DNA of 59,511 nucleotides, filler included, from Sphacelaria rigidula (GCA_964200075.2; 5 parts of 5 records of this genome joined end to end with filler, not necessarily neighbours in it); one strand, 5' to 3'. Counted from the first letter of the whole stretch, positions 11,825 to 47,690 are shown. Notes: generated by a model not told the origin, from the letters alone. Made by a program: numbers and translations.

Positions 11825-11924
11825 NNNNNNNNNNNNNNNNNNNNNNNNNNNNNNNNNNNNNNNNNNNNTTAATTAATTAANNNNNNNNNNNNNNNNNNNN
11901 NNNNNNNNNNNNNNNNNNNNNNNN
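11825..11924. other. Artificial contig linker
   Basis: N44-TTAATTAATTAA-N44, stops in all six frames. Confidence 0.98.
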
Positions 11925-18200: not shown

Positions 18201-21200
18201 CTCTCGCTCCGTTGTATGGAGGTGAGCATCATCGCAGTTAGCGCAGCACAGCTCCCTCTCTTTCTCTCTCTCCACCCCCCCGTTGATGGCGGTCTGTCTT
18301 ACTTTCAACGCTCCCCTTTTCCCCGGAACGAGATCCTATAGAGTCAAGGGCGGTATGCCTTACATTCCTCGATGCTCCCCTATTCTCTCCGGGACGGGTT
18401 CTTGTAGTCTCAAGGATTAACTTCGTTCCGCCTCGGTATTCGCCGTGCACCTTGTTATCGAGCATCGAATCGACATTTCTGCATTCTGTCTGCTTTCATC
18501 CAACTGCATTGACATTAACTCAATTCCTAAATCGCGTGCCAATCCTCGTTCCCTCCGGGAAGAAGGCCGTACTGTCGGGATTTTAGCCCGCAACATTCCC
18601 CCGAACTAGTCTTGACGTACCACGCTTACCGCAGGGGCGCGTTGGCGACAGCCGTACGATCAATATCAGGGATAGTATCTGAGTCGCATCGAATTTTGCA
18701 CGTTAACATTGAAAATGGTCGCGCCTTGGTAGCCGTCGTCATTGATCAGTCCATACCTCCGCGTTCGCGGTTGTAATTCCAGAAATTTGAAAAGCAAATA
18801 TAGCAACAAGATCGGATTCAGCAGGATGAGCTACTAGTGATTTCCTACATGGACGACGTATTCGAAGAATCGAACTATACTCATTCGGTATCTCGCTGTG
18901 TTGCACAGGATATTCGTATCCACGAACACATGCGATGCATTAATATGCGTGGAATATGTCCACACTCTGGACAATATGTGGTCAATAGCTGCAATAGAAA
19001 AAAAAAAAACTTGTGTGTGAAGTTAGGGTATTGCGACTATTGCGTATTGGTCCAGGGTGTGAAGTACGTCTGAGAAATGGTGAGATGAAAATGTGGGCGT
19101 CATACGACAATACTGTAACGCACACGCGACAAATGCAACCAACCCTTGTTTACGGTACGATACCACCCGACTCATACTTGCTGCGTTCATCCTGTTGTCG
19201 TCGAAAACGTTTTGTATCCCCCATGTACATGATACTCGAAGGGAAGAAAAATAGGGCTGCGACCTGGCAGGAGATGCCTTTACGAAAACTACCGCGGCAG
19301 TAACGATCCCCTTGCAAAGATCGCCTAACGTCCCTGGCACAGGGGATCCCCCAGGTCACACCGCCTTACGTAGTATGCTATTTCGCGTCACTTTCTGTTC
19401 ATGTTCGCCGCTCGACGGTGTCCAAAAAGGGGAGGATCCAAGGAGATGGTCAAAGGGTTCGTGAGAAACGAGAATCCCGGGAGTTCGTCGAAGGTTTCCG
19501 AAAGCGAAGATTCGAACACGGACCGGGAACGCTCGAAAACAATACGAACGCGAAAAACGTAGCATTTCGAGGCCACATATGAGTTGACTACGGAAGCATA
19601 CTTTTCCTGCGCGCATACATCCCATTCATCTCGCAACTTTCATATCTGCGCATTCTTTCCTCATTTGCATATTTGCAAAACGTTGACACGGACACACTAC
19701 AACCCTCCAAACACGGTGCTGAAATTTCCCTCTCCACTGACTCTCAACCGCGGGAAGCCCAACCCTATCTGCGCCAATACACCCACCAAGCCCTACCCCC
19801 CGTTTGTCTCTCCGGCAACCGATTTCCCGTCCTCTTTTACTGCCATCAAGGAAAATCAGGAGGGGTTGCGCTTGGTCGCCGGGTGCCTCCGACAACCGAT
19901 CCGCTGATCAGGCGAAATGCTTGATAAGTCCCTCGTGTTCGCCTTACACTGGCGACCAGTGTCCCCACAGTAACATTGATTCGTATGACTGATTGATCAC
20001 TGCACTGTCCAGTCACTGGCCGGTCGCCCCGGTGGGTCAGATGGTATCCTCGAAACCTCCTGACGGGTGGGTCGTGGGTTCAAATCTCGGAGCGATTCGG
20101 GATTTTTTCTCACACAATGCCCAACAGGGGAGAGCGACTGTGTCGTGGGTACACAAAATTCGACTCAATGGCCGACGAGGGAAAGGGACCGCTGGACCCC
20201 TCTCGCGATGAAAAAAAAAGAGGGCAAGCACCGCAGATGGAAGGTGGAGAACTAAAACAAACAAAAAGCAAAAACTCCTGTGTTGGCCTTCCTCCCACGT
20301 GACCCCGGCTGGTGCGCCCGTATATACCAAAAGGTGCAGACCGGCGTCCAGAATGGAGGAGACGACAACAACACACTCTGCATCTGATTCCGCAGGGATT
20401 CAGCCGTGGTTACATGAAAGACGTACCCGAGACGAAATAATACTGAAACATGCGCTGAAGAAAAGTGCACAATACAGAATTTGCGGCCCTGGGACTCAAA
20501 GCCGCAGCGAGTTACCGATCACTCAAAATACTCTTCGGCGTCCACGCACAGGACAGCCTTTTAATTCGGCGAGCGACCCACTCGCCGACGCTCATTCCCG
20601 CCTTGCTTACCGTAACGCGTACTCGATACTTGCCTGGCGTGATGACCGTGGGAGCCTCGTACCGAGCGATCTTTTGCACCACCTCAGCGGCGCGAACGAG
20701 CGCGTTATCTGCAGCTTTGGGTACAGAGCCGTGTCCTGGTCGCCCCCTTAAGCACACCTCCACGATTGCCGTGCCTGGATCACACGGGGCCGCATCGTAT
20801 GGGAGGGTACACCAACGAAACTGATACTGAACAACGAAGCCAAAAGTTAACCAACAGCTGCCGACGGGGTGAAACTTTAAAAAAGCTTGGTCGGAGATAC
20901 AACAAATGCAGACACGAACCCCCCCAAAAAGGCATGACCATCTATCTCTGACTGCCTTCGTGGACAGCGTATGGACGCCAAGTAGATGTTTTGAGTTGCT
21001 GTGTTTTTTCGCAGGGAGCTCGAAATCTTCTCGAAAGATGACATACATGTGCGCTTTGTCACGGTGTCTGAAATGCTGGATCGTGTTGTGCCTACTCATA
21101 CGGGTAGGAGCAATATGAACGTCCACAGCAGGTCGTGCGACTGGGGTGTCGTCTAGGGAGTCACACACGGCCTTCGAGATATACCAGCAGCAGAAATTCA

Positions 21201-23296
21201 CGGGTATGTCGGGTAGAGTACTTCCTACATTTGGCTATTTGGAAAATATCTAACTTCAAGTACCCAAAACTTGGGAGAGTGTTGATTTCGTACTCAACAA
21301 CACCCAGATACCGGGTAGAGTATTGCGATCGTGCCTAACCATACTCAATATTTGGGTAAAGGTTGAAAACCGGACCATCGCAAGCTAAAATTCGGCGAGA
21401 GTAAATACCCGGTTATTTCCCCTACTCAACACACCCTTGAAATAAGTCTCCATCGCAACTGGTACATGGAAACACAGACAAGAAAACGTGTTACAATACG
21501 TTCAACACCTGGCGCGTGCACTGTTACAAGATGCCTTCTGTATTTGGCCGATCATTTCTAACCCTCATATTTCGTGGTGATCTTACCTACTACATTGTCG
21601 TGTGCTCGGGCTTCGGCAAGGTATGGCGTTCGGCGTTTGTCCATAAAACAACGTGCGAGAGTTTTGCCGTGGACGAGTGCAGCAGCTCGTAGTGCAAGAT
21701 GTATTTGGCAGCGACAGATATAGAGCGACTTGCACCACACCGAAATGATTCGCACTGATATTTTGTTTTCTGGTAGGCAGCGAACTAAGCGCTACCAACA
21801 AACTGCTTCACAGTACTCAGCCAAAACTGGACATTAGAGCACCCGATGAACAGTCAGAAAGAGAGCACAAGATTTCAACATACGTCGACACTGCTACCAT
21901 AAAAGGATACTGGTGACCCGTCCGCCTTCGCCCGCCACAGCATTCCGCCACCCCTTAACACCCACACGAGTACACCCCTTCACACCCGGCAAAGAACAAC
22001 ACCGGGCAACCTAGGTGTGCACTCTCTCCGCCTCACCCTTTTCAGATGTGCTCTGGAAAAATGACAACGAAGGCCGCAGCTTAAAGTCAGGAATCGAGGC
22101 ACCCCCCAGTTCGGTGACGCAGAAATCGGCGGAGAACAGATCCTTTAGGCCAGGGTCGCTGAGAATAAACCTGTGTTGGGGATGTAAAGGATGGGTTGAG
22201 GTATTGGAGATTTAGCTCAGGCTCAGCAGTAGTTTGATCCTTCGACTTCGCAAGGATCGAGGATCTTCATCGCAGGGATGCCGTGCGTGGACAACGTACA
22301 AGAAACGCGTATCCCGTCGTTGTGGCACAAAATGGATCAACCTCGACGAATTTCGCCCAAAAATGTTTCAAGGCTGTGGTAAGTAATATGCGTAGGATTC
22401 GATTTATCAGCCTTAGAAGGGCAGCGTTTACGAGGGGGAAAGTTGAGTCGGGGCGAGGGGAAGCATTGCTCAGGGTGAATTTATTTTTAGACTTTGTGTC
22501 AAACTGGTATCAGCAGCTCCAGACAAGTCAATGTCAAGAGCTGTCCACGAGATTAGATAACCGTTCGCACACGAGACGATGAGCGAGGCATGTACTGGAA
22601 TGGCGTCAGCCTTGCTTCCATATTTGGCTGAGAGAGAAGCAATGTAAAAACGTCAGTTGCACGTATGCCAGAAACGTCATTCTGGGCAACATCAGGAAAA
22701 AACACACAATTTCAGGCGTTAATGATCAAGGGTAATATCTGCCGCCGGGTGCTCCTTATCGTTGTCCATCTCGAGCCGGTGTCGATGTACGAGCCCTAGG
22801 AATCACCATACCACGATGGATTACACGCGGTTGTCCATAAAAAAACTAGCATTCATTGCTGAGGTTGGGGACTGACGCCCATTCGTTGTATGCCTCCCCA
22901 AGTATGAAGTGTTCAATCGATCCTGTCCTGGGGTCCAGAAAACTCACTTTGCGCCGTCCTCACCCCCTTGCTCCTCGTCGCTAACCGCACAGAACAAGAG
23001 CGTCCCCTTTAGCTTTGCCCCTGTCCCAGAAGCATGAAACAGCACACTCAAATGATCGGAAACGTGCGAATCGTTAGCGTGCTCTACGGGCGTCAGTTGT
23101 TGCACAGCCTGGCATGCGTTTGAGTCTGTCGTCTACTGCAGCAGCTGATGTATTTTTAAATCGAAGTGGGCAAGCGCTGACGATTTCGGTAATGGCTCGC
23201 CCAAGTCTTGGTGTGGGTTGTGATGTATCCCTCACCGCTCTCTTTGATGTGAACGAACGTGACCGCCATCGCTGCCACCGTGCTGAGCATATCCAC
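12262..23296 (-). CDS. M20/M25/M40 family metallopeptidase, partial at both ends. Exons 23296-23236, 23020-22948, 22170-22037, 20774-20634, 14756-14548, 12380-~12262
   Basis: Spliced product [118 protein letters not shown] shows the M20 motifs DML, DEE, EKG, GHGS, NVIP and D.R.LPG in order. All five junctions are phase-consistent; the last donor is uncertain. Confidence 0.92.
12499..13098. mobile_element. 600-bp Stowaway-like (Tc1/mariner) MITE in an M20 intron
   Basis: TIR CTTCCTCTGTCCCAT(A/G)AGTAAAGTCCGT(T/C)ATG (~32 bp) with TA on both sides (12497-12498, 13099-13100). Confidence 0.9.
16088..16183. mobile_element. Small insertion with 11-bp TSD
   Basis: CTGCAGCATGT at 16088-16098 and 16173-16183 flank 74 bp containing the hairpin CCACTC-CATACT-GAGTGG. 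Confidence 0.55.
17618..17838 (-). mobile_element. SINE family B, degenerate copy
   Basis: TCGCGGATTGGATAATGACCATCAG..CGTCGACTCTCATCA..GTCCTCATGCCTTCGACGACAGGAACCAGATTCTGCTCAGAA. Confidence 0.6.
17906..18205. repeat. (GTCTCT)n microsatellite between ~40-bp direct repeats
   Basis: Directly visible; TGGAGGTGA..CGCAGT(C/T)AGCGCAG(T/C)ACAGC recurs at ~17851 and ~18217. Confidence 0.95.
20019..20375 (+). mobile_element. tRNA-derived SINE, family A, copy 2 (M20 intron)
   Basis: A box TGGGTCAGATGG, B box GGTTCAAATC, (CAA)n-like tail; colinear with 161-508. Confidence 0.8.
21199..21439. mobile_element. Degenerate MITE with CAC/CAA-GGG ends
   Basis: Ends CACGGGTATGTCGGGTAG and CTACTCAACACACCCTTG; flanks AAATT/AAATA; internal GGGTAGAGTA repeats. 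Confidence 0.55.
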
Positions 23297-23746: not shown

Positions 23747-23846
23747 NNNNNNNNNNNNNNNNNNNNNNNNNNNNNNNNNNNNNNNNNNNNTTAATTAATT
23801 AANNNNNNNNNNNNNNNNNNNNNNNNNNNNNNNNNNNNNNNNNNNN
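23747..23846. other. Artificial contig linker
   Basis: N44-TTAATTAATTAA-N44. Confidence 0.98.
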
Positions 23847-23890
23847 AACCAATGGCCCAAAATACCCCCCCCCCTATCGTAGGATGACTC
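23847..23890. mobile_element. Right end of a Sola2-like MITE, cut by the contig end
   Basis: TACCCCCCCCCCTATCGTAGGATGACTC resembles the terminus at 37805-37833. Confidence 0.65.
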
Positions 23891-26576
23891 AAAAGCTCAT
23901 AGATGAACATCAGACCATCATGACAGCTGATGATATAAAGCCAGTACCGCCAAGACCCATCGATCTCAGAAGCGCGGACGCGGTTCCCCCATGAAAAATC
24001 CTGGGGTTCATTCATTTCGAGCTTACGTTGGGATAAAAACCCTGCCAACAGGAACGTTTGTACTACCTCATCTGGGACCGGATTGTCGACTACTAGACAA
24101 CTTCATGGTGAGTGCTTTCAAAGCTATACTCTATACTCGACTGGCAGACGGAAGAACGAACATTCCGTTGTTCCCGTATTAAGATCAAAGCATCGCATCG
24201 AAAACAGCAAGGCTCACAAAATACAACACACCGAAACAACACACTGTTTTATAGTCGGTGTGAAAGATTCTAGCCCGGTTCGAGTTCCTCACAACAAATG
24301 CAGTGTGCCACTACAAAGTGAAATGACAGTACTAGTTGAAACGGGAAATACCCCGTGAACAACAACAGCAGCTGTCGTGGAGCCGCTCATAATAACAGAG
24401 GAAGACACTTGATCATCTGATGTACCTAAAGCACTCACGCGCATCATTGCTTCAAGAACAGCAGGCACGTAGTCGACGAATAAAACGGAATGGTACAAAT
24501 CGCCAACCGGTCGAGTCCACATGTAAGTCATGTGGAAAAGTTATGATAATGATGAGAGACAAGAACGGAGAAACTTCATGTTATTCCGCACATGCGCACG
24601 CTATGTCAGGGTTGCCTACGCCGGGAAAACGGTCCACAACCGGCCAAAATTTGCCGATGGGACACGTTACGGTAGGATGGCTATACAAAAGAGCGCCGGA
24701 AAACCCAGTCGAATGAAAAACAACTTCGATGTCAAAAGCTGGAGTACTAAATATGTACTGTCCGTATTGGACCACCTCGCAAGGTATGCTTTGCTCATTC
24801 CGGTGCCGAAAAAACAGACCACATCAATATAGCCGAAACTATAATTGACAGAGTCTTTACTGCATTTGGCATCCCGGGATAAAATCTTTCCCGGTGTTCA
24901 AACACAGTCAAAATGTACTCTCGTACCCACCATACCAGGACTCAGGAAGGCCGAAACCGAAACTCCAATTTACATGGAGAGGACCTTTTATGGTAACCGA
25001 GAGACGATCGCCGGTTGTGCACATAATAAAAATAGGCGACGACTCTAAAGAAATGTCAGTACATCCCGCTCACATGAAGGAATATCACCCACGGAAAACA
25101 CCACCCGCATCAGATGTCGATAAATCGAGCGAGTTGTTCCTAGACAAACAGATACCTCTACCAGAGAGACCAAGCACACGAAACGTTGCCTACAATATAA
25201 CGTTACGCTGCCAAAAAAGTGGTAGGTCACGCGCCAGACCCAGGTCGGAGAAGTCGTTACAACGATCAATATCTGTTGAGACTCCAGGGCTACAGGCCAG
25301 CGGCTGACCTGACCTACCGTAGAATTGCTCAGCACCGGACTCGGAATCCAAAGGTACAGGGAAACGGGAATGGATGTGACTGTTTCACAGACTGTTTGAG
25401 CGTCCTAGCAAAACGCTCAAGGGTTGAGGAGTAACCTGAGGTCAACATTCGGAGATTAATGAGACTCAAAAGATACAGCCCAGCAGCTGACCTAACCTAT
25501 CGAGCTGACGAAACATCACAAAGTAGATACATCCTCGATATATACCGTCATGACATCGGGTTAGCAAAGCGCTCACATCCGAAGTCGAAATCCGAAAATA
25601 CCAGGTAACGGAAACGGATGTGATTGTTCAACAGACTGTTCGAGCGTCCTAGCAAAACGCTCAACGGTTGAGCAGTAGCCCGGGATCACAATTCGGAGGT
25701 CAAGGAGAGTCACAAGAGAAGAAAACGAAAAACGACGTTAGAACATTGCAGACATGAACGGAAAAATATCTGATATGTCAACGGTCTGGGGTGCAACTTC
25801 TCAAGGAAGATAACCTCTCAGCAATCGGGGTAGTGCTGATCATTTTGACGATGTTTAGACAAAAAAGCACAATGCTCACAGGCCGAAAACATCGTATCCA
25901 CCGCTTTGTTACTGACACGAGGACTTTGTACTATTTCGGTGTCAGCGGAACCGAAGGTATCCCAGAACCCGGACATGAGAAACCCAGGCGCCCGTGAACC
26001 GGTCAATGTCCCAGTGCCCAGGCACGTAGAAACAGCAGATGCATCCAGCACCAAAATGCAATGCATCTTGTGGATTATCACATGGGACACATGTATATGC
26101 CACAAAATGATATGAAGCCAAAAACATGTCGATGTTTCACCGAAGAGCACAACGCTCGCAAGATAAACATTAGACCCACCGCTTTGGTACTAACGCGAGG
26201 ACATAGTCCTATACTCCGGTGTCAGTGAACCGAAGGTATCCCAGAACCCGGGCAGGAATAATCCAGGCGCCCGTGGACCGATCAGTGTTCCAGTGCCGAG
26301 TCATGTCACATATGACAGCTACATGACAGAAACAAATATTAGAGGGTTTGGAATAGATGCACTGTTACTGACCAAAGGTAGCTGAGATTTACTGGGGGTG
26401 TTTAGTCAATACCACAGTATAGAGAAGGGCTACCTTTGCGATTAGTGGTGGCGTGACTCAATCAATGATTGTCACTCAAAGAAACCTCCATGATTATATC
26501 ATCAGCGAAGCTGATGACCGCCTCGTCCCACCAGCCATAGCCTCGATGGGCTAGAGGCGCATAAAGGGGGGGAATA
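23891..26576 (+). pseudogene. Decayed, internally deleted Ty3/Gypsy pol (protease, integrase pieces, chromodomain-like end) plus 3' region
   Basis: Fragments IDLRSAD..ILGFIHFELTLG..HLGPDCRLLDN (matches 58100-58330), KYVLSVLDHLARYALLIPVP, PKLQFTWRGPFMV and YLLRLQGYRPAADLTY; many stops and frameshifts; no RT seen; PPT AAAGGGGGGGAA at ~26563-26574. Confidence 0.85.
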
Positions 26577-27721
26577 TGTGGAGGATACCTCTTTGCAGTG
26601 ACATATCAGAGACCGATGCCACACATTTTGCAGACCCAGCGCAAGCAGGGTCAAGGTAGGAACGTTCCGGAAGGATCAGATTACCGAGGACCCTGTAATG
26701 CCGACGTAGCTAGACAACTTGGGGTGATGCCAGGAAGAGCCTAATATAGGACGGTCCAACATCCCCCAAGGTCTGGGTCGCCCCTGGCGCCCACTTCTCG
26801 TCTGACCCCACTTCTTTCCTACATATAAACAAGAGGAAATCATCACCAGCCTCGGAGTTCCTTCGGCATCAGGACGGCAGTGTCCCCCCGTAGGTCTATG
26901 ACTACTCTAGCGATACGCCTTCCTTACATATATAGCATTTAAACTTGCTTCTGCACCATCACGCGGCGAAACAGCATCATACTCCTAGAGGAAAAAGAAC
27001 ACGATACATGCTGGGATCACAACACTCCCCTTTTCTATACCATGGGCGCGGTTTCGGCCCAGGAATTCTCATTCATCGCACGATAGACCACAACAGCCCC
27101 GCCGCCGACCATACCGAGGTTGGACTTCGCCCACGAAGCATGGCTTGCAATAGCTACGTCCATGGGGTGCAACTTTAATGATGTATCAACTAGCGCTAGG
27201 CATCGTTGGACGAGGTCTTGCGATAGCGTATCACCACCGCCTTTACCCCTGGCGGCCCATCCAAGAAGTAGAAGACCGGAGCTCTGGATTGATCGGACCT
27301 GGCATAAAATAAGAAGGTCGACGGAGATATTTTCGCCATCACGTTGTCGAAGTCCAACATGCAGAGCGGATACGTCGTGACGACGGCGGTACAACAAAGC
27401 GAACGCTTTCCACGACGAGAAACAATAACGCGGAGAATCTCCAGCAGTAATATGGAGCGTTAATATTTTACAGCACTAGGAAACAAACAGTATATATATA
27501 TGCATATGTATAGCTTGAAGGAACGAAGAGTCTGAGTCGGCAAGCCGCGACGTGCACGACTACTACCTTCGTTTCGAGGGACGTTCGATGCTGACGACAC
27601 CCTCTCTCGCCTCCTACCAACGTACACCATTATTTTCTCGAACAACACCTCTACTTCCCCAAACAACACCGCGGTCTCGTGCTGCATGGCATGCACTACG
27701 GACTTCACCACCATACCACCG
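26577..27721 (+). mobile_element. Probable 3' LTR of the Gypsy remnant
   Basis: Starts TGTGGAGG immediately after the polypurine tract; non-coding with TATA-like motifs; 3' boundary approximate. Confidence 0.55.
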
Positions 27722-27964
27722 GAGTGATGGAATGCACAAATATTTTCTGAGGTTAGAATTCTTAGGAGCCCTAGATCTCATCCAAAACACGACTTACGAA
27801 AATATGTGAGAGTACGCCAGGATTACTGTTCCAATGTGCTGGGGATATCCCGACTGAATTTGCAAACGGGGATGTCCTGACCCACATTTTTGTGCATCTA
27901 GGATCATTAGGAGCCCCTGAACCAGACAAGATTTAAAAAGTGCACCCCTACCGTACCATTGCTC
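27722..27964 (+). mobile_element. Sola2-like MITE, copy 2 (left TIR partly deleted)
   Basis: GAGTGATG..GTGCACCCCTACCGTACCATTGCTC; flanks ACCG/ACCA; interior matches 3133-3389. Confidence 0.88.
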
Positions 27965-28023
27965 ACCAGGTACATGAGAATCGTACTTCAGGCGTCACGC
28001 CATCCGGCACAGCGTGTACGTAC

Positions 28024-31000
28024 CTGAGAAAATGACGCCATCGTACGGGCAATAACGTTTGCCACCTCTTCAGCCAGCGAAACGCGGGGTATTCCTCCTC
28101 CTCTGTTAAACTCGGCCAAAAGCTGATGACAACCAGCTTCTTGAACAAGGAGCGCCGATGGGTACCGCTTCATTCGAGCTAGAACTAGCCTCGCCCCACC
28201 AGCACTGAGGGTGGAGAAGATTGCACGCGGGCGTTCGGCAGAGGCGCGGAGACCCGTCAAGACGTTTACAGGGGGTGAACTTCACGTAACGTACGCCTTG
28301 CGCCGAGAATAGTTTCGTCAGAGAACGGTGCCGAAGCCCTCTTCTATCCAGGAAAGTTATTGAGCACCTGTTTGCCCACACCTGAGAGACACGATGTGCT
28401 TTTCGGTACGTTGTTGCTACATGCTCACAAGGTCTCAACTAGATTCCACGTCGAGAAAACATCGACGGTGAACCCGTTGCCCGCGAGAGCACGACACTCG
28501 ACGGATTGCATCCAGTACCCCGCAGGAACATTCCGTAGGCCACTCTTCTCACCGCTCAAGGGCACGCATCACAGTGCTCGCGGTGTCCGGCACCGTTGCG
28601 TCCCGAAGCCACGGAATTGTCGTAATCGTCTCGCTCGCCTCGCTGTACTCCCCCCAACCCCCATTATTAAACGCACGCACCCTATACCGCAGACCCAGTC
28701 CGGGTACCCGATGCGCAATGTTCACAGGCTTCGCCTTGATTTTGGGATACCACGGCGGGAAAACAGGCATCCACTGCGAGTTGTTCCTCAAAACCCCCAG
28801 AGATTGCACCTCGTACACCAGGGGCGGCGCACCGTCGTAGCGGGGATCTTCCCACGCCAACCGCACCGCGGTGCGGGTGACGTTTACTGCCACCGGCGCC
28901 AGAGGCTCGGGTGGGGGGCTTGGTGCGGCGCATGCCGTTGCCCTCGCGATCGTATATATATCCGGGCCTACAAGCACAGGCATCTGGGCTCGACCATGGC
29001 GCATTAATTTTTGAGGTTGGTAGCCGAAACCGTAACGTGAAACGACGCCGGGACCAAGGTAAGGGCGGTGAGGGTGAGGTCGCGTCTACGCGACGAGGTA
29101 TACAGGCGACGAGACTGACAAGTGCGCGGATGTATTTGAGCCGCCGGAACAAAGTCGGGGGGGGTGATGCCGCGGTAGCCCGTCCTTGGGAAGTGTAACG
29201 GGGACCGAGGCAAAATCTACATGTGAGGCGTTTTGATCCGGTTTCTGAAATCAGCTGTATCTGCACTCTTGAAACTCAATTCTCAGACCTGGTTTCTAAA
29301 ACCAGCTATATGGGTTTTTCATAGTAATTTATAAGACGTGGTTTCTGAAATCACCCATCATGTTGATGCGCTGTACGGCTATTTCTTCGTTACAGTTTTT
29401 TTACATTGCGAGGGGGGGGATGGGGGGGGTGTCTCATTTTGCCCTTGCGGGGGGTCTGTGGGGACATACACGAACATACGCCGCGAGAGCTTAGAGCCAC
29501 CACCAGAGCTTCCTCCCGCGTAGAGCAAAGGTCTCGATACATCGAGAGCGCGTCGTCAAACGGGAAACAACAAAATGTGGAATGATAAGCAGGTCACGCA
29601 ATACTTGATGACCGCAATGGTGTAGTTTCTCGCCTGCGTCCTTTGAAGTTTCGCTCTTTCCTGCTCTCTAATTCGCGCCGCCTCCTTCTCTTCGCGAGCT
29701 TTCTCTGCACGGGCTTTGGCTCCAAGCTTAGCCCGGCTCTCTCTTTCCTTCTTTGCGGCTTCCCTCCTGTCTACCTCGTTCAATTCCGGCCCCGGCTCTG
29801 CCGAGCCTTCCCTCGGTTGTTCAAACTTCTGAAACTCTCGACGGAGGAAGGTGTACAAATCTGCGATCAAAACGCGATCTTGGTGACCTTCTTTGATACA
29901 CTCGCCGCTGAGAGCATTCCTGAGCACTCTGCCGAACATGCTCATCTTCTCCTCGTAGATCGCTACGTCGAACATGGGAGCGCATGCCTTATTCAGTCCG
30001 TAAATCGAATCACTCCCTCTCTGGGTCGACAGCAGCGCACGCGGTTTGCGGTTTCCGATGATGTTACCGACTCCGCCGCCACTACCATCGCCAACGTCAC
30101 CCCGGGGTCCACGAGCGGAACGCGAGGCAGCTTTATCGACCGTTTTGCCGCTCCCATCCGCCTCTCCTTCTCCGGTCCGTCCGCCACTTTTGTTTCGGCG
30201 ACCGTGGTCGTCGTTTTTTTCGTATCGTCGTTGAAAGCTATCCACGAGGCTATTGCCATTTTTGGAGGCACCGCTGCTGCCGGCCCTGCGGTTGTCACTT
30301 CTACTACTGGTGTTTGTTCCGCTGTCACTGACACCGCTGCTACTGTCTCCTCCCCTGGAACTACCACTGTTGCTGCTATCGCCGTCACTATCACTGTCGC
30401 TGCTTTGGCTGACGCTGCTGTCATCCTCTATATCACTGGAGCCATCGGCTCTGTTTACTTCTTTTCGTTTTTCACCAACATCCCACGCAGCTGCCGCTTC
30501 TTTCCGAAGGATACCCAGGTCAACTTCGCGGGTCCCGCCGACTCGACAAGAGCCAATGATCACCGCGCCACAGAGTTGGGCGGAACGGCTGTAAAAATCC
30601 TTTGGGGGGTACAGGTGACGTGTTTTGAAACCTCCGTGCTCCTTTTCTGTATGCACTACGTCGAACACCACCACCTTGTGCCGGATCTGCGTGAACATTC
30701 GAGGAACCCATTACAGCGCCCAAACAGAGGGGAACATACGCGGCTACTCAGAGGAGAGGACGTGCTCCTACGGCGATATAACCGGAAGTGAAGACACATG
30801 ATGAGCTATACCGCTGTACGTGCCGGTCTTTCTGCCAACCTACGGTGGTGCCATGTATGCTGGCCGGCAAAAGTTGAAAAGCAGCTCGAGCCTAATGCAA
30901 CTTGGGAGGGTTTTGAGTTTTTATCCCGTCATGGTGCAGATACCGCCTACTGGTGGAGGGGTAGATTAGCATAATGTCTGTAGCGGACGCATCACCTTTC

Positions 31001-31115
31001 CACATCGGCAACACCGAGGTAGCTGTGTATGCCTGATGGGCAGAAGGTACGAAGTTAAATTCCGTCTCTATCACCACCGTGACAACTGAAAAAAAACTCC
31101 GAAGTGAAGCAGGTG

Positions 31116-31152
<37 letters not shown>

Positions 31153-33776
31153 CCAAAATGGTGGGAAAGTCTGCAAGCAGAGTCCACGAACTCACGAATA
31201 AGTCTTCTGCGTCGACTGTTAGCTAGGGCACCCAACACACGCAACTATGTGAAAAAAGGTGCACCAGTATCCTCAACGCTAGTGGAGGAAAAACGGGTAC
31301 CTCTTCAAACCTCATCTCATGAAAAGGTGGGCTCGAAGAGACTCATAAACGGGGCGGGGTGATGTGAATACCACCCTCTGTAAAAGGGGAAAATGACCAC
31401 AGTTGTCAATCGAGGATGTATCGCCTTCTCGCAGATGATTTCAACCCACTACTCCACCCAAACTCGCCCACGATCTAGTATCACGATCAAAGAAAAAAAA
31501 ACTTGAAATACCCACTGAGTCCATGCACACCTGGATATCAGCGATGGTCGAGGCTAGGGTTTCGAGTCGGAGCGCCGAATGGGCGAGCGCCTCCTTGCTA
31601 GTCCACTTGGTATCAGACGCCACGAGGTAGGTTCCCGCGATCGTTTTTCCCTTGCTGATCTCCGCCACGTGCGTGCACAGATACACAAACAGCAAGGCCT
31701 CTTGCGGATCGAAGGCCTCCTTCTCGTCATCATTGACGCTCTCATCTACCTCGAAGCCATCTATTGCGTCTTCATCGCGTCTGCGCTGCCGGGCCTTGGC
31801 TGCCTCCTCTGTCTCGTGTTGTACTCTGGCCATGGTCGTGGAGACCTTTCGCGACAATTTTTGGTGTGATCGTTAAATCTCCGGCTGCGAAGTGCGCATG
31901 GCACGTTCACTGCAAGATATACTTTTTTCACGCGAAACTCGAGTCCCGAACGTTTGAGCTGGAATAAGTTGACACGGCTGTGAACAAAGACGCGGTCGAC
32001 GGTGAGTTCTGCGGTGGGACAATACAATCCGCTGACAGAAAAAAGCTCTCCACGAAAGACCACCACAAAGACATACCGTACTGAGCCATCCAGCAGGCCT
32101 CTCATCTGCTCGCAACGCGTCTTGAAATGGATACTACCCTTTGCTCCAAGTGTCTGTAGAGAACAGGTCACCTCCTCGCGTTGATCGGTAAACCAAGTTT
32201 AGGTGAGAGAGCTATATAAATATAGATCATATTATAACTTGCTGGGTTCAATTTGGCAATGCGCCAACCGCTCAAGGCTTGTTACACGAGGAGCACAAAC
32301 TATGGATGAAATTGTGATACTACATATCGCCGCACGTAGAACCTAAATCAAGCGTGCAATCAATTATGCATGCATGCGACCGTACACATGCCGACGACCG
32401 GGTCAAGCTACAGGTTCCTCGAAAACAATATCAAAAGCCTGGAGACGTCCGCAGCGAAGGTCTTCGCAACCTCAGCGGAACGACCTCAGTGCAGTGTGCT
32501 CATGTGAAGCAATGGATCGCCCGAGTACGCAAGACCAGCTTTCAGTCATGTTCCAACCGTACTGCAAGTAAGCCTGCGAACGTACGTAACCGATGATACG
32601 GCACCAACGGTCGGCCTGACACTCAAGACCTCTCCTGGACCTTCAGCACTGTTATACTTGATGCATCCTCACCTGTGCCGCGACCGACACCAAGCTGGCC
32701 TGGAGTACTTCCAATGACCCGTCCTTCACGAAAAAACAGTTTTCTGGGGACATCGAACCGTGGGAAAAGAGACGGACGTCACCGCTGCCATAGCAAGAGT
32801 TTGGATATTTTCAGCGTGTAAGCACGGGAAGACAACCGTACACGTGCGGCGATTATTCTTCGAGTTGTCGGCTCTCGACACCAGCAGTGATCGATCGATT
32901 GACTGTCGCTCATTGACCGTTCCCGTAAGAGTTCAGCCGTGGGTCAAAGGATAGACGTATCCAAGGCAAAAAAATGGGAAGCACTCGTTCAAGGAAAATC
33001 CGAGGAAGGAGAACGATGGAGAGGAGAGAGACAGAGACAGAGACAGAGACAGAGGACAAACATTATCGTGAACTGCAAACGGGAAAATATACGAGAAAAA
33101 AACAAAAGGCAGGCTCTTACCAAACCATTACACAGCGGGAGGCCGTACACGGAACAGAGCAACCAAGGTCGTGGAAACAGGTTGCGGCTCAGACATCTGG
33201 ACCGTTTTCGTTTGCATGTTTGACGTTTTTTTTCCGTGCCGATGAGAGGCACTGCTTTCAACCGACTGACCTCATTTTTTCTTGTTGTTGTCGCTCATCG
33301 CGCGTACACATGTGCGAATACTTCTGGCAGCTCAAACCCCCGTCAAGACAAGCAAGGAAGATTGTTATGTTGACTTGCGATAGGACACGGATCGGGTGCA
33401 GCGTGTTCCCGCCCAAAAACGGATAAGGTGCGTCCGATGGAGGGGCTTGGGTTGAATGCACCATGTGCATCCATTTTTTGCCCACAGTTCCATGTGACCA
33501 GGGCTGGATCCCTGGGGGACCAACTAAAGTACGACAATCAATCGAATCAACCAATGATAAGTTCCACGTCTCTCGAGGTCACACCTTTTGGCTGAGTTAA
33601 CTTTATGTACGGTACATAACAGTTACTACAGGAACTCAGTCTCTCCACGAAACACAAAGATTCCAGCTTTTTTAACCCGTAGTGCCCCTGTGTCTCTCCC
33701 CTAGCTCACCCGACTCGAACTTCGAAAAGTACGGATGCTGGAGGGTGTCGCGAAGCATATCGTGGTCCGCATCCAC
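28024..33776 (-). CDS. Caspase-like (peptidase C14 fold, Cys-less) + fibronectin type III + ARM-like protein, partial. Exons 33776-33710, one unresolved exon, 32784-32673, 31845-31531, 30686-29634 (GC donor), 28983-28553, 28204-28024
   Basis: Motifs in order: DADHDMLRDTLQHP, PENCFFVKDGS, LLFVYLCTHV, GTYLVASDT, KVVVFDVVH, GAVIIGSC, SMFGRVLRNALSG..VLIADLYTFL, TQMP; then FN3 PPEP..VRLAWEDPRYDG..YEV..YRVRAFNNGGWGEYSEAS; then MKRYP..VQEAGC. The four junctions from 32673 down are phase-consistent; the 33710-to-32784 join needs an intervening exon. Confidence 0.85.
31117..31153. repeat. (AAC)n microsatellite, intronic
   Basis: Directly visible. Confidence 0.9.
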
Positions 33777-34104
33777 CTGTCACGCGAGAAATGGAGTACG
33801 GCAATACTCGTGCTTGTTGCTACGTGTGGGGAACAGAATACATGTTCGGCGATAGGTCATAGACACCGTGGCGTGCGGTGTTGGGCTGCCGTGTCCTGGG
33901 GTTGCGTATTGTCTTCGAACTTGACACCAGGGCTGCGATTTAGACCGCTAGCTATTGCCTGTCTGTTGAAGCATGTGGATATGCGTTCAATGCGCGGTGC
34001 CGCGCTCACGTATACCGTTTCCGCAAATTCAAGAACAAAAGGACTCTGTTTGTGTTCTCCGAAGCATTAACAAACGAGGGGAGGGGGGGGTAGGTGTGTA
34101 CTGA

Positions 34105-34460
34105 TGATATTACGGGGGGAAGGGTGGGGGCGGGGGTACTCATTTGTTGTTTGCCTTAGTCGTTTGACCATTGACCACGCACCCCTTTCGAGACGGAGCA
34201 CCCTTTCTACTCCTACCAGAGACGCATCCAATATTCCGGCGCTCATCACGTTTCTTCCATACACTACACGAATAACCTTTCACGTATCTTATCCCCCGTC
34301 CTGTTTTGCCGTCTCTGGCCACCATCTATTTCCTCGTATAGCCATCGTTTTCTACCTACTGACAAATGCATCAAACGATTTCATGCCGTCTTTGTTCACG
34401 TCCCGCATTTTCCCCTCCAGCACGTCCCGTTCCTCCTTTTATAGCTCACATTCTGCCACT
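34105..34460 (+). mobile_element. Partial copy of the 672-bp Sola2-like MITE family
   Basis: TCGTTTGACCATTGACCACGC..TTTCGAGACGGAGCACC..TAATGCATCAAACGATT..CACATTCTGCCACT shared with 37162-37520. Confidence 0.8.
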
Positions 34461-34920
34461 ATTGTGGGTGCTGTTATATACTGCTTTGAAGAATCACGGG
34501 GGGGGGGGGGGACTTGAGTGTCATGATCCTGCACGCAGTTTTAGCAGCGTTTAAATTTATTTGAGTTGGTATATTTTGATTTATGAGCAGCGTTCGAATT
34601 TGGTGATGTGGTGTATTTTGATGCTGTGACCAATTAGCTTGGCGCTGATCCCTCTTGCGTGCAGAACTGGGGGAAGGTTGATTTTTGATCATACACTCGG
34701 AAATAATGTTGCGGTAGTGGGGCTGTTGAACATTCAGTCGAGAGTGTTTTGATGTTCAAGCAACAACAAGATTATAGAAAGTGAACATTGGGGAAGGTTT
34801 TGCTTCGCGTTTCCACACGTTAAGCTTTTACTTCGCCATGTACTGTTTTGCTTCTCCGTGATGTGTTCATTGAAGGATGGGGGTTATGACCTATTTTGAT
34901 GAGTCATCTTCCACGCTTAA

Positions 34921-35018
34921 ACCTTAGACCGCGAGGTTAGTCTTCTGTTGAATCGGCATCAATTTCAAGTTATAAAAAATATGCATGATCCAGAAAGACT
35001 AATCTCGCGGTCTAAGGG
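34921..35018. mobile_element. 98-bp piggyBac-like mini-MITE or hairpin
   Basis: TIR (A/C)CCTTAGACCGCGAG(G/A)TTAGTCTT flanked by TTAA and TCAA. Confidence 0.65.
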
Positions 35019-35668
35019 TCAAGTGCTTCCGAAATGTTGTAATAATTGGTCAATATAGTTGAAGCACGATATTTGTCTGCGGATCCTGTCTTGAAGTATT
35101 GCCGCATTCCCCAGGAAAAGAATTCTGGTATACCTACATATTATGAGCACATAACCACAAGGATGCGCGTATGGCAGAACTATTTTTCTGGTGGAGTGTT
35201 GTTTCCGAGTTGAGAATATTTTCCCCAGGAGAATATTGTATTCGGCGCGGATTAAAAAGTTATTGAGATGAAGTAAGATTTCATTAAATACTTTCTTGAG
35301 GGGGCTGATTGTTTCTGAATTTATTTTGCTTTTTTTTTTTTTTTTAATATCTTTCAGGAAATGTTTGGCATTGAGAGGTTTGGGAGATTCAAGATCGATA
35401 CAGAAAGGAGGAAATTAAGGTTTGCTCGAGTGTTCTTTATTCTTGATAATTCTGAGATGATCAATCAATTAATCACCTATGTGACTTCTGCTCTCTACTG
35501 CTGTGCCACAGGGGCAATTCTGTACATCTACCTCCTCCTCCTCTCGATGACTGGTGAAAATCGCAGTTTCAGATTTTTCGAAGGGAGGGGGAGGGGGGGG
35601 GGGGGGGGGGGGCTTTTTTATTTGAAGGGGGGGGGGGGGGGGAGGGGGGAGAGATGGGTGGGGGGGCG

Positions 35669-35768
35669 NNNNNNNNNNNNNNNNNNNNNNNNNNNNNNNN
35701 NNNNNNNNNNNNTTAATTAATTAANNNNNNNNNNNNNNNNNNNNNNNNNNNNNNNNNNNNNNNNNNNN
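35669..35768. other. Artificial contig linker
   Basis: N44-TTAATTAATTAA-N44. Confidence 0.98.
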
Positions 35769-47590: not shown

Positions 47591-47690
47591 NNNNNNNNNN
47601 NNNNNNNNNNNNNNNNNNNNNNNNNNNNNNNNNNTTAATTAATTAANNNNNNNNNNNNNNNNNNNNNNNNNNNNNNNNNNNNNNNNNNNN
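47591..47690. other. Artificial contig linker
   Basis: N44-TTAATTAATTAA-N44. Confidence 0.98.

Follow-up and report, generated by a model that had tools for sequence, protein, structure and literature searches.

A probable non-catalytic caspase-fold protein with FN3 and putative ARM-like modules in Sphacelaria rigidula

Pseudo-members of the caspase family are already well known, and the protein described here is not new in kind. In animals, the caspase-family protein cFLIP lacks the nucleophile and acts through interaction with active relatives. RAPTOR uses a short motif to recruit substrates and has armadillo/HEAT repeats and WD40 after its caspase-like N-terminal domain. The cell-death and immune signalling components of brown algae, an independent multicellular lineage, are largely unknown. 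In Trypanosoma brucei, the pseudopeptidase TbMCA4 (metacaspase 4) interacts with an active metacaspase (PMC3220528, available part). Cyanobacterial and alphaproteobacterial pseudo-orthocaspases, as presented in the available part of PMC6426788, combine a p20-type fold, in which the dyad is substituted, with a retained acidic pocket, and are proposed to be non-proteolytic. Here we describe a gene on the minus strand of a 59,511-nt stretch of DNA from Sphacelaria rigidula (GCA_964200075.2; hereafter the window), which is about 50% G+C and eukaryotic with spliced genes, and for which a first-pass annotation had proposed a Cys-less, caspase-like pseudoprotease fused to FN3 and ARM-like repeats. 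We consider it reasonably probable that the product is a Cys-less caspase-fold protein serving as a non-catalytic binding scaffold, adaptor or decoy regulator. What is new is the family itself, the state of its dyad (His kept, Cys replaced by Val), its large inserts, and its architecture, which runs from an IQ-like helix and a hairpin module through a pseudo-C14 domain and a helical stretch to FN3 and a putative ARM-like solenoid.

Sequence-profile and model comparisons place the N-terminal half of the protein in a predicted, diverged Peptidase_C14 caspase fold of the metacaspase/orthocaspase type, an assignment reached by four routes (hhalign, NCBIfam, ESM Atlas, and AlphaFold with Foldseek) on which Pfam was silent. 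Control domains matching PF00656 were collected from bacterial genomes reached via 16S loci; from 24 matches in five genomes the best 16 were taken and five dropped because their 15-residue extensions hit a stop, leaving 11 domains from three genomes. Against these 11 true PF00656 domains the family scored 96.1% in global hhalign alignment (E 1.9e-9, 256 columns) and 92.0% in local alignment (E 6.7e-7). With the spliced window protein as master the score was 86.4% (E 4.7e-6), as against 0.1% (E 0.65) for its reversal, and reversed-sequence controls overall gave at most 0.1% (E 0.62-0.78). The sole family match in all three full-length orthologues was NCBIfam NF047832, 'caspase, EACC1-associated type' (E 1.1e-7 to 4.4e-7, profile positions 3-69), and an orthologue lacking the N-terminus matched positions 46-139 of the same profile (E 0.022), a segment that contains both dyad positions; window exons 3 and 4 searched alone gave no NCBIfam match. 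The ten best named feature matches of orthologue residues 60-470 in the ESM Atlas were all C14 clusters (score 0.93), and among ten structure rows the aligned part was PF00656 in eight, with template modelling (TM) scores by query of 0.47-0.52 over the ten. Foldseek with the whole orthologue was swamped by FN3 matches, so a domain-only AlphaFold model was made of orthologue residues 70-471, and this showed the expected order of strands and helices (predicted TM score 0.66). Among the matches listed for this model in the PDB, 35 of 36 were clan CD proteins (11 caspases, 14 MALT1, six metacaspases, two CHAT proteases and two glycosylphosphatidylinositol-transamidase entries), with TM by target of 0.50-0.56 for the caspases, and the 36th was an integrin complex. 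Among the BFVD viral models the best rows included Peptidase C14 and metacaspase proteins of giant viruses, with a best E of 7e-4.

The former active site can be followed residue by residue in the hhalign alignment (coordinates are on the minus strand unless marked otherwise). The segment LLFVYLCTHV (31695..31666) falls on I-L-V-Y-Y-S-G-H-G-W of the true domains, with His105 of the window protein (31671..31669) on the His of S-G-H-G, and the V-V-V-F-D-V-V-H-T segment of strand KVVVFDVVH (30677..30651) falls on L-V-I-I-D-S-C-H-A, with Val162 (30656..30654) on the Cys of D-S-C-H. The retained His and the replacement of Cys by Val, both proposed from the first reading of the sequence, are thus recovered by alignment to true C14 domains; in the AlphaFold model the Val of the Cys position lies directly after strand beta4. 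Across the stored homologues and the window, the catalytic His is kept in 20/20, and the catalytic-Cys position holds Val in 22, Ala in two, Ile in one and Thr in one (D-T-T-H, in Tribonema). Cys occurs in 0/26, so that no orthologue retaining D-x-C speaks against a Cys-less strand. The residue after the His, usually Gly and here Val in the window, is Val in nine, Ala in nine and Thr in one of 19 rows. A Cys two positions before the His (31677..31675) is invariant in 19/19 rows, Tribonema included, and G-S-C is found in 29/30. Two further residues, the Asp of A-D-H-D (33767..33765) and the Asp of D-V-V-H (30662..30660), correspond in the alignment to the pair of Asp conserved in true C14 domains; the first S1-pocket Asp is present in the window and in 6/6 database rows covering the position, and the second in 26/26 by motif. 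The corresponding residues of TbMC2, Asp95 and Asp211, accommodate basic substrate residues, and these positions are kept in bacterial pseudo-orthocaspases, according to the available part of PMC6426788. Nowhere is the protein better conserved than in the loop G-F-K-T-R-H-L-Y-P-P that comes just after the former Cys, and the His, both S1 Asp and a K-T-R-x-L-Y-P-P loop are conserved out to Xanthophyceae. Strand beta5, G-S-C-R-V-G, aligns with S-S-x of true C14. In caspases the Gly after the catalytic His is part of the oxyanion hole. Canonical peptide-bond cleavage has probably been lost in this family, because the nucleophilic Cys and the Gly after the His (now Val/Ala) are both replaced.

Compared with the orthocaspases and metacaspases (C14B), the family retains the order of strand beta1, the alpha1 Asp, the beta3 His, a hairpin with x-D, the beta4 motif equivalent to D-x-C-H and the beta5 motif S-x-C, together with a helix S-x-F-x-x-x-L-x-x-x-L-x-G, a spacing of about 57 residues from the His to the Cys position, a His after the Cys position and both S1 Asp. 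It differs from them in the replacement of Cys by Val (Ala, Ile or Thr in other members) and of S-G-H-G by C-T-H-V/A, in a 50-residue acidic insert before beta3 and a disordered insert of 75 to about 290 residues after beta5, in going unseen by PF00656, and in its fusion to FN3 and a putative ARM-like solenoid. The bacterial family NF047832 is the only curated hidden Markov model (HMM) that matches, whereas introns and a different architecture are found here and no EACC1 module was seen. The fold, the substituted dyad, the acidic pocket and the proposed lack of proteolysis are shared with the pseudo-orthocaspases, but these carry Tyr/Ser or Tyr/Asn for His/Cys in the available text of PMC6426788, a pattern that does not describe the His and Val pair found here, and their partner domains, kingdom and size are also different. 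TbMCA4 and cFLIP are single-domain or linked to death effector domains and close to active partners; the present family instead carries FN3 and putative ARM modules, and none of the searches made returned a close active paralogue. With RAPTOR there is a functional analogy only, in the combination of a non-proteolytic caspase fold with an alpha-solenoid scaffold: the orthologues gave no Pfam match to Raptor_N (E <= 10), the family has an FN3 but lacks WD40, and nothing points to orthology. We also noted that one of the bacterial control domains, from Trichodesmium erythraeum (L133), reads H-F-S-G-Y-G and L-D-T-S-Y, the Tyr/Ser pseudo-orthocaspase pattern, and that two others (L124 and L135) have C-Y instead of C-H at the Cys position and the residue after it.

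Relatives of the protein are few. Exon 4 returned only 20 matches at E <= 0.001 among 1.84 billion representative proteins, and a profile search of 5.8 billion proteins gave no more distant or Cys-bearing relative, with 29 matches among 8000 candidates scored, all of the same family. The named relatives are Esi_0002_0051 of Ectocarpus siliculosus (857 aa; annotated as 'hypothetical' and, in UniRef, as 'FN3 domain-containing'), models of four other Ectocarpus species, a model of Hapterophycus canaliculatus, and KAG5186720.1 of Tribonema minus (818 aa), the remainder being assembly fragments. As far as the searches reach, named relatives occur only in Phaeophyceae and Xanthophyceae, the PX clade of stramenopiles, and the stramenopile origin suggested by the first-pass annotation is confirmed. 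The window protein is 46.5% identical to a 1051-aa Ectocarpus sp. model over 918 columns, 80% identical to one assembly fragment and 25-31% identical to Tribonema. The same caspase-like/FN3/ARM fusion is seen in the models of Esi_0002_0051, Ectocarpus spp. 13 and 12, Ectocarpus fasciculatus and Tribonema and in two partial models, with a conserved R-T-Q junction; conservation of both the Cys-less motif and the domain fusion, which the first reading had left to comparison with other proteomes, therefore extends to the Ectocarpus and Tribonema relatives. At the N-terminus of the full-length Ectocarpus models, an acidic stretch, an IQ-like helix and a small beta-hairpin module precede strand beta1 FAVIITNQEF (named by eye), and no signal peptide or membrane segment is visible in full-length orthologues when these are inspected by eye. 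The IQ-like helix reads L-I-Q-G-L-F-R-A-K-R or T-I-Q-G-A-Y-R-A-Y-R in orthologues P0023, P0024 and P0019, and the hairpin module resembles a WW domain without the tryptophans, with a predicted local distance difference test score (pLDDT) of 82-89 there in the model. The N-terminal region of the orthologues matched no Pfam family, IQ and WW included.

The gene model, built from tblastn with an Ectocarpus orthologue and from splice signals, has seven exons (33776..27035) that join into 2382 nt in one frame, with 793 codons and a single terminal stop. All six acceptors are AG, and the donors are GT in five cases and GC in one, after exon 4. The motifs quoted in the first-pass annotation were all located on the minus strand at the places it implied, and its span of 28024-33776 is bounded exactly by the first exon present and the end of exon 6 and leaves out exon 7 (27298..27035), the gene running on to 27035. 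Exon 1 of the part present (33710..33776; tblastn, AG acceptor, GT donor) encodes helix alpha1, VDADHDMLRDTLQHPYFSKFES, with the first S1-pocket Asp. Exon 2 (32673..32743; tblastn, splice sites and frame) encodes strand beta2 NCFFVK and the start of the long helix alpha2, and exon 3 (31531..31845) a charged helix, the acidic insert, beta3 with the His and the preceding Cys, the hairpin YLVASDT (31629..31609) and helix alpha3. Exon 4 (29634..30686; hhalign, motif counts and contig ends) encodes, in order, beta4 KVVVFDVVH, the near-invariant loop GFKTRHLYPP, beta5 GAVIIGSCRVG (GAVIIGSC at 30569..30546), an insert of about 150 residues, the helices SMFGRVLRNALSG (29942..29904) and IADLYTFLRREF, and a Lys/Glu/Ala-rich helical stretch, with the motif IADLYTFL at 29867..29844. 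In the window this insert is rich in Ser, Gly, Asp and Arg; its length is highly variable between species, and it is followed by the two C-terminal helices of the fold and then the Lys/Glu/Ala-rich stretch. The folded parts are strongly conserved in comparison with the variable inserts. The Q/MP junction is the join of exon 4 to exon 5 (29634/28983).

This is a nuclear gene of a brown-alga-type stramenopile, split into several exons and expressed. Sequencing runs were aligned over 23847-35668, and four of them (X1-X4) are termed RNA-like here because they were taken as RNA by guess only. Intron 3 is skipped exactly, with 30686 joined to 31531, in RNA-like contigs of two runs (X1 and X2), and contigs of X1-X3 stop at the predicted exon ends 29634, 28553, 28204 and 28022-24 and continue with letters that lie elsewhere. 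Contigs from two runs break off precisely at 29634, and the 43 and 26 letters that they carry beyond it are not those of the intron; one contig ends at the GTGAGA donor (28553), one contig piece corresponds to 28022..28204 with letters from elsewhere on both flanks, and a contig end at 31843 agrees with the predicted 31845 given the shared GT. RNA-like contigs also lie over exon 7 (26989..27256), and the DNA-like run X5 continues across the introns with a depth of about 26. After exon 4 the intron opens with a GC donor at 29633-29632 (ACGCAG/GCGAGA) and looks like a real GC-AG intron, because contigs from both of those runs stop precisely at 29634. Of the junctions that the first-pass annotation had left to RNA sequencing, that across intron 3 is thus joined exactly, and the other four ends are seen as contig breaks in runs that are RNA-like by guess. 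Both ends of exon 2 are also crossed by unspliced RNA-like contigs, and a further such contig sits within intron 2 (31947-32173); these may reflect pre-mRNA, intron retention or DNA carry-over. A 145-codon stop-free frame in intron 2 (31761..32198) had no Pfam match and no orthologue counterpart, and may also be due to chance.

Exon 5 (28553..28983) encodes the fibronectin type III domain and was placed by Pfam fn3, tblastn, the orthologue model and a contig end. Its Pfam fn3 match (E 7.3e-5, 23.3 bits) is under the 25-bit cut-off, and orthologues scored 16.7-20.8 bits; the exon is 57% identical to the orthologue FN3 region by tblastn. The whole-orthologue model gave 80 matches in the PDB at E <= 0.001, and those listed were FN3 domains of Robo3, titin, myomesin, Eph and others, with E of about 1e-5, TM by target of 0.7-0.77 and a probability of 1.00 (0.98 in one row). 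The FN3 domain claimed at first reading is accordingly borne out by the fold of the orthologue model, with Pfam just below threshold. Exon 6 (28024..28204; contig piece, tblastn and ESM Atlas) encodes the first part of the predicted C-terminal alpha-solenoid and exon 7 (27035..27298; frame, and tblastn with 58% identity to orthologue residues 754-844) the remainder, ending at a TAG stop codon (27037..27035). In the orthologue model this region consists of seven helices, mostly at pLDDT 83-93, and its look-alikes in the ESM Atlas were ARM_LRRK2, ZER1-like and STKLD1 (TM 0.76 by query), with TPR and adaptin rows as well. There was no Pfam Arm or HEAT match on the window exons (E <= 1) or on the orthologues (E <= 10). 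The ARM-like repeat of the first-pass annotation therefore stands as a predicted helical solenoid with ARM look-alikes, and an ARM/HEAT-like C-terminus is put forward at the level of a lead. A stop-free frame at 27460..27777 that looked ARM-like was rejected because no orthologue matched it and the splice to the last exon is at 27298.

The original description, of a scaffold or sensor built on a dead caspase fold, agrees with sequence and structure as far as these go, none of the refuting conditions stated with it having been borne out, and from them we infer both 'dead' and 'scaffold or sensor'. Several observations weigh against reading the protein as a non-catalytic caspase-fold scaffold, adaptor or decoy regulator. 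PF00656 was not matched by the exon translations (E <= 1) or by six orthologues (E <= 10), and the scores of about 30 bits against NF047832 are far under its 140-bit cut-off. Sequence-profile searches of the PDB with two queries (A1 and A2) returned no clan CD protein, the top matches being low-complexity or coiled-coil sequences. The protein used in the structure work was an Ectocarpus orthologue, which shares about 46% identity overall with the window protein, and not the window protein itself; the confidence of its domain model is moderate (mean pLDDT 66.7), and the PDB Foldseek E values for that model are weak (best 0.012, none <= 0.001). Many of the homologue rows counted are close relatives, making the totals sequence counts and not independent events. 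At the transcript level, the RNA nature of X1-X4 is a guess and the partner pieces of four junctions are absent from the rows listed, which leaves these joins supported though not shown directly. Neither strand beta1 nor the N-terminal residues of the orthologues, roughly 100-140 of them, were found in the window by tblastn, three-frame reading, regular expressions or a six-frame HMM search. Finally, some chemistry could have been retained, given that the His is invariant and so is a Cys two residues upstream of it.

This last point leads to the possibility that the protein is still an enzyme, a caspase-fold hydrolase with a rearranged dyad in which either the invariant Cys two before the His (C-T-H) or the Cys of G-S-C-R has taken over as nucleophile. 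We judge this unlikely. It draws on the retention of the His (20/20), the -2 Cys (19/19), G-S-C (29/30) and both S1 Asp; yet the Gly after the His is replaced too, in metacaspases the Cys of S-G-C is conserved but has no catalytic role, and we know of no relocation of the nucleophile within clan CD. In favour of an enzyme, retention of the His would be unusual for a dead member, in that known pseudo-orthocaspases usually lose both residues, as Y/S or Y/N (PMC6426788, available part). A migrated-nucleophile enzyme can be envisaged because the His, the -2 Cys and the two pocket Asp do not vary across brown algae and Xanthophyceae, and in one form of it the former active site would still work, with the nucleophile moved from beta4 to beta3 and the K-T-R loop lying in the pocket as an internal basic segment until switched on, which we regard as quite unlikely. 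A different objection concerns the gene model: the caspase-like and FN3/ARM parts could belong to two genes or transcripts, the fusion being an artefact of modelling. The exon 4/exon 5 join is not displayed as a joint in the contigs listed, the donor after exon 4 is the non-canonical GC, and the exon 4 frame is stop-free beyond that donor. Against this, two contigs stop precisely at 29634 and carry further letters (43 and 26) that are not intron, the splice keeps the frame to the single stop, and the same fusion with its R-T-Q junction recurs in four Ectocarpus species, Tribonema and the two partial models; the separate-transcript explanation, which would have removed FN3 from the protein described at first reading, is very unlikely.

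Two explanations that would do away with the caspase assignment or with the gene fare worse. Resemblance to caspases by chance or convergence, in some other alpha/beta fold, would fit the lack of a Pfam or PDB sequence match and the weak Foldseek E values, but four methods converge on C14, reversed controls fail, and both the motif order and the His-to-Cys spacing agree with C14, making this highly improbable. A decaying pseudogene or a transposon-derived fragment would account for 5' exons not found in the window and for the high-copy repeats that flank the gene and sit in its introns. However, the frame is intact over seven exons, spliced RNA-like contigs are present, the folded parts are conserved against variable inserts, and exon depth in the DNA run is about 26, single-copy-like, compared with 1e4-1e5 over the repeats; decay of this kind is exceedingly improbable.

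If the protein is a non-catalytic scaffold, adaptor or decoy, its C14-type domain would be a peptide-binding module that recognises an Arg/Lys-containing segment, and this segment, contributed by a partner or by the protein's own K-T-R loop, would be held in the old substrate groove. The coiled-coil-like stretch, the FN3 domain and the ARM/HEAT-like solenoid may recruit or position partners, as might the N-terminal IQ-like helix and small beta-hairpin module in the orthologues, and the protein would serve as an adaptor or would regulate proteolytic or other signalling as a decoy. Any part in cell death is no more than a guess, made from the name of the family. The caspase fold would here have been recruited as a probable binding module into a large multidomain protein, with a dyad state unlike that of described pseudo-orthocaspases. 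The gene is a conserved, expressed candidate for genetic tests in Ectocarpus, and the family offers a natural case of what a conserved His and specificity pocket do without the nucleophile. In the literature we found no full-text match for Esi_0002_0051, CBJ48320 or D7FPY8, and no pairing of a pseudoprotease or caspase-like domain with FN3 or armadillo, only known pseudo-C14 cases. The caspase homologues catalogued for Ectocarpus in the available part of PMC3734836 are four type III metacaspases, EsMC1-4; the family is probably missing from such catalogues because it is invisible to Pfam and annotated as 'hypothetical' or FN3.

At its 5' end the gene is incomplete in the window, since 33776 is an acceptor site, and the missing exons may lie outside the window or inside a masked N stretch. 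A weak match at 34714..34664 (E 27) was rejected as a 5' exon, being without a donor or continuation. Paired 44-base runs of N with 12 bases between them recur with a period of 11,922 bases (11825-11924, 23747-23846, 35669-35768 and 47591-47690) and reflect regular masking rather than gaps in the assembly; a short 5' exon could be concealed by one of these pairs, situated 1.9 kb upstream of the first exon found. Microsatellites occur in intron 3, (CAA)n at 31106-31164, and in intron 1, (GAGACA)n at 33018-33062, both skipped as repeats in read alignment. Very high-copy sequence was observed at 27797-27935, 34117-34511 and 34907-35301 and over much of 23847-27006, with a summed word depth of 1e4-6e5 in the DNA-like run versus about 26 over the gene; the same stretches are also high in the RNA-like runs and are repeats or mobile elements flanking the gene. 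A plus-strand frame at 24849-25307 looks by eye like the tail of a retroelement integrase and had no Pfam match. Further away, a stop-free frame at 20512-21234 on the minus strand matched the Peptidase M20 dimerisation domain just above the cut-off (E 2e-4, 21.7 bits), and is probably an exon of a neighbouring M20-family gene.

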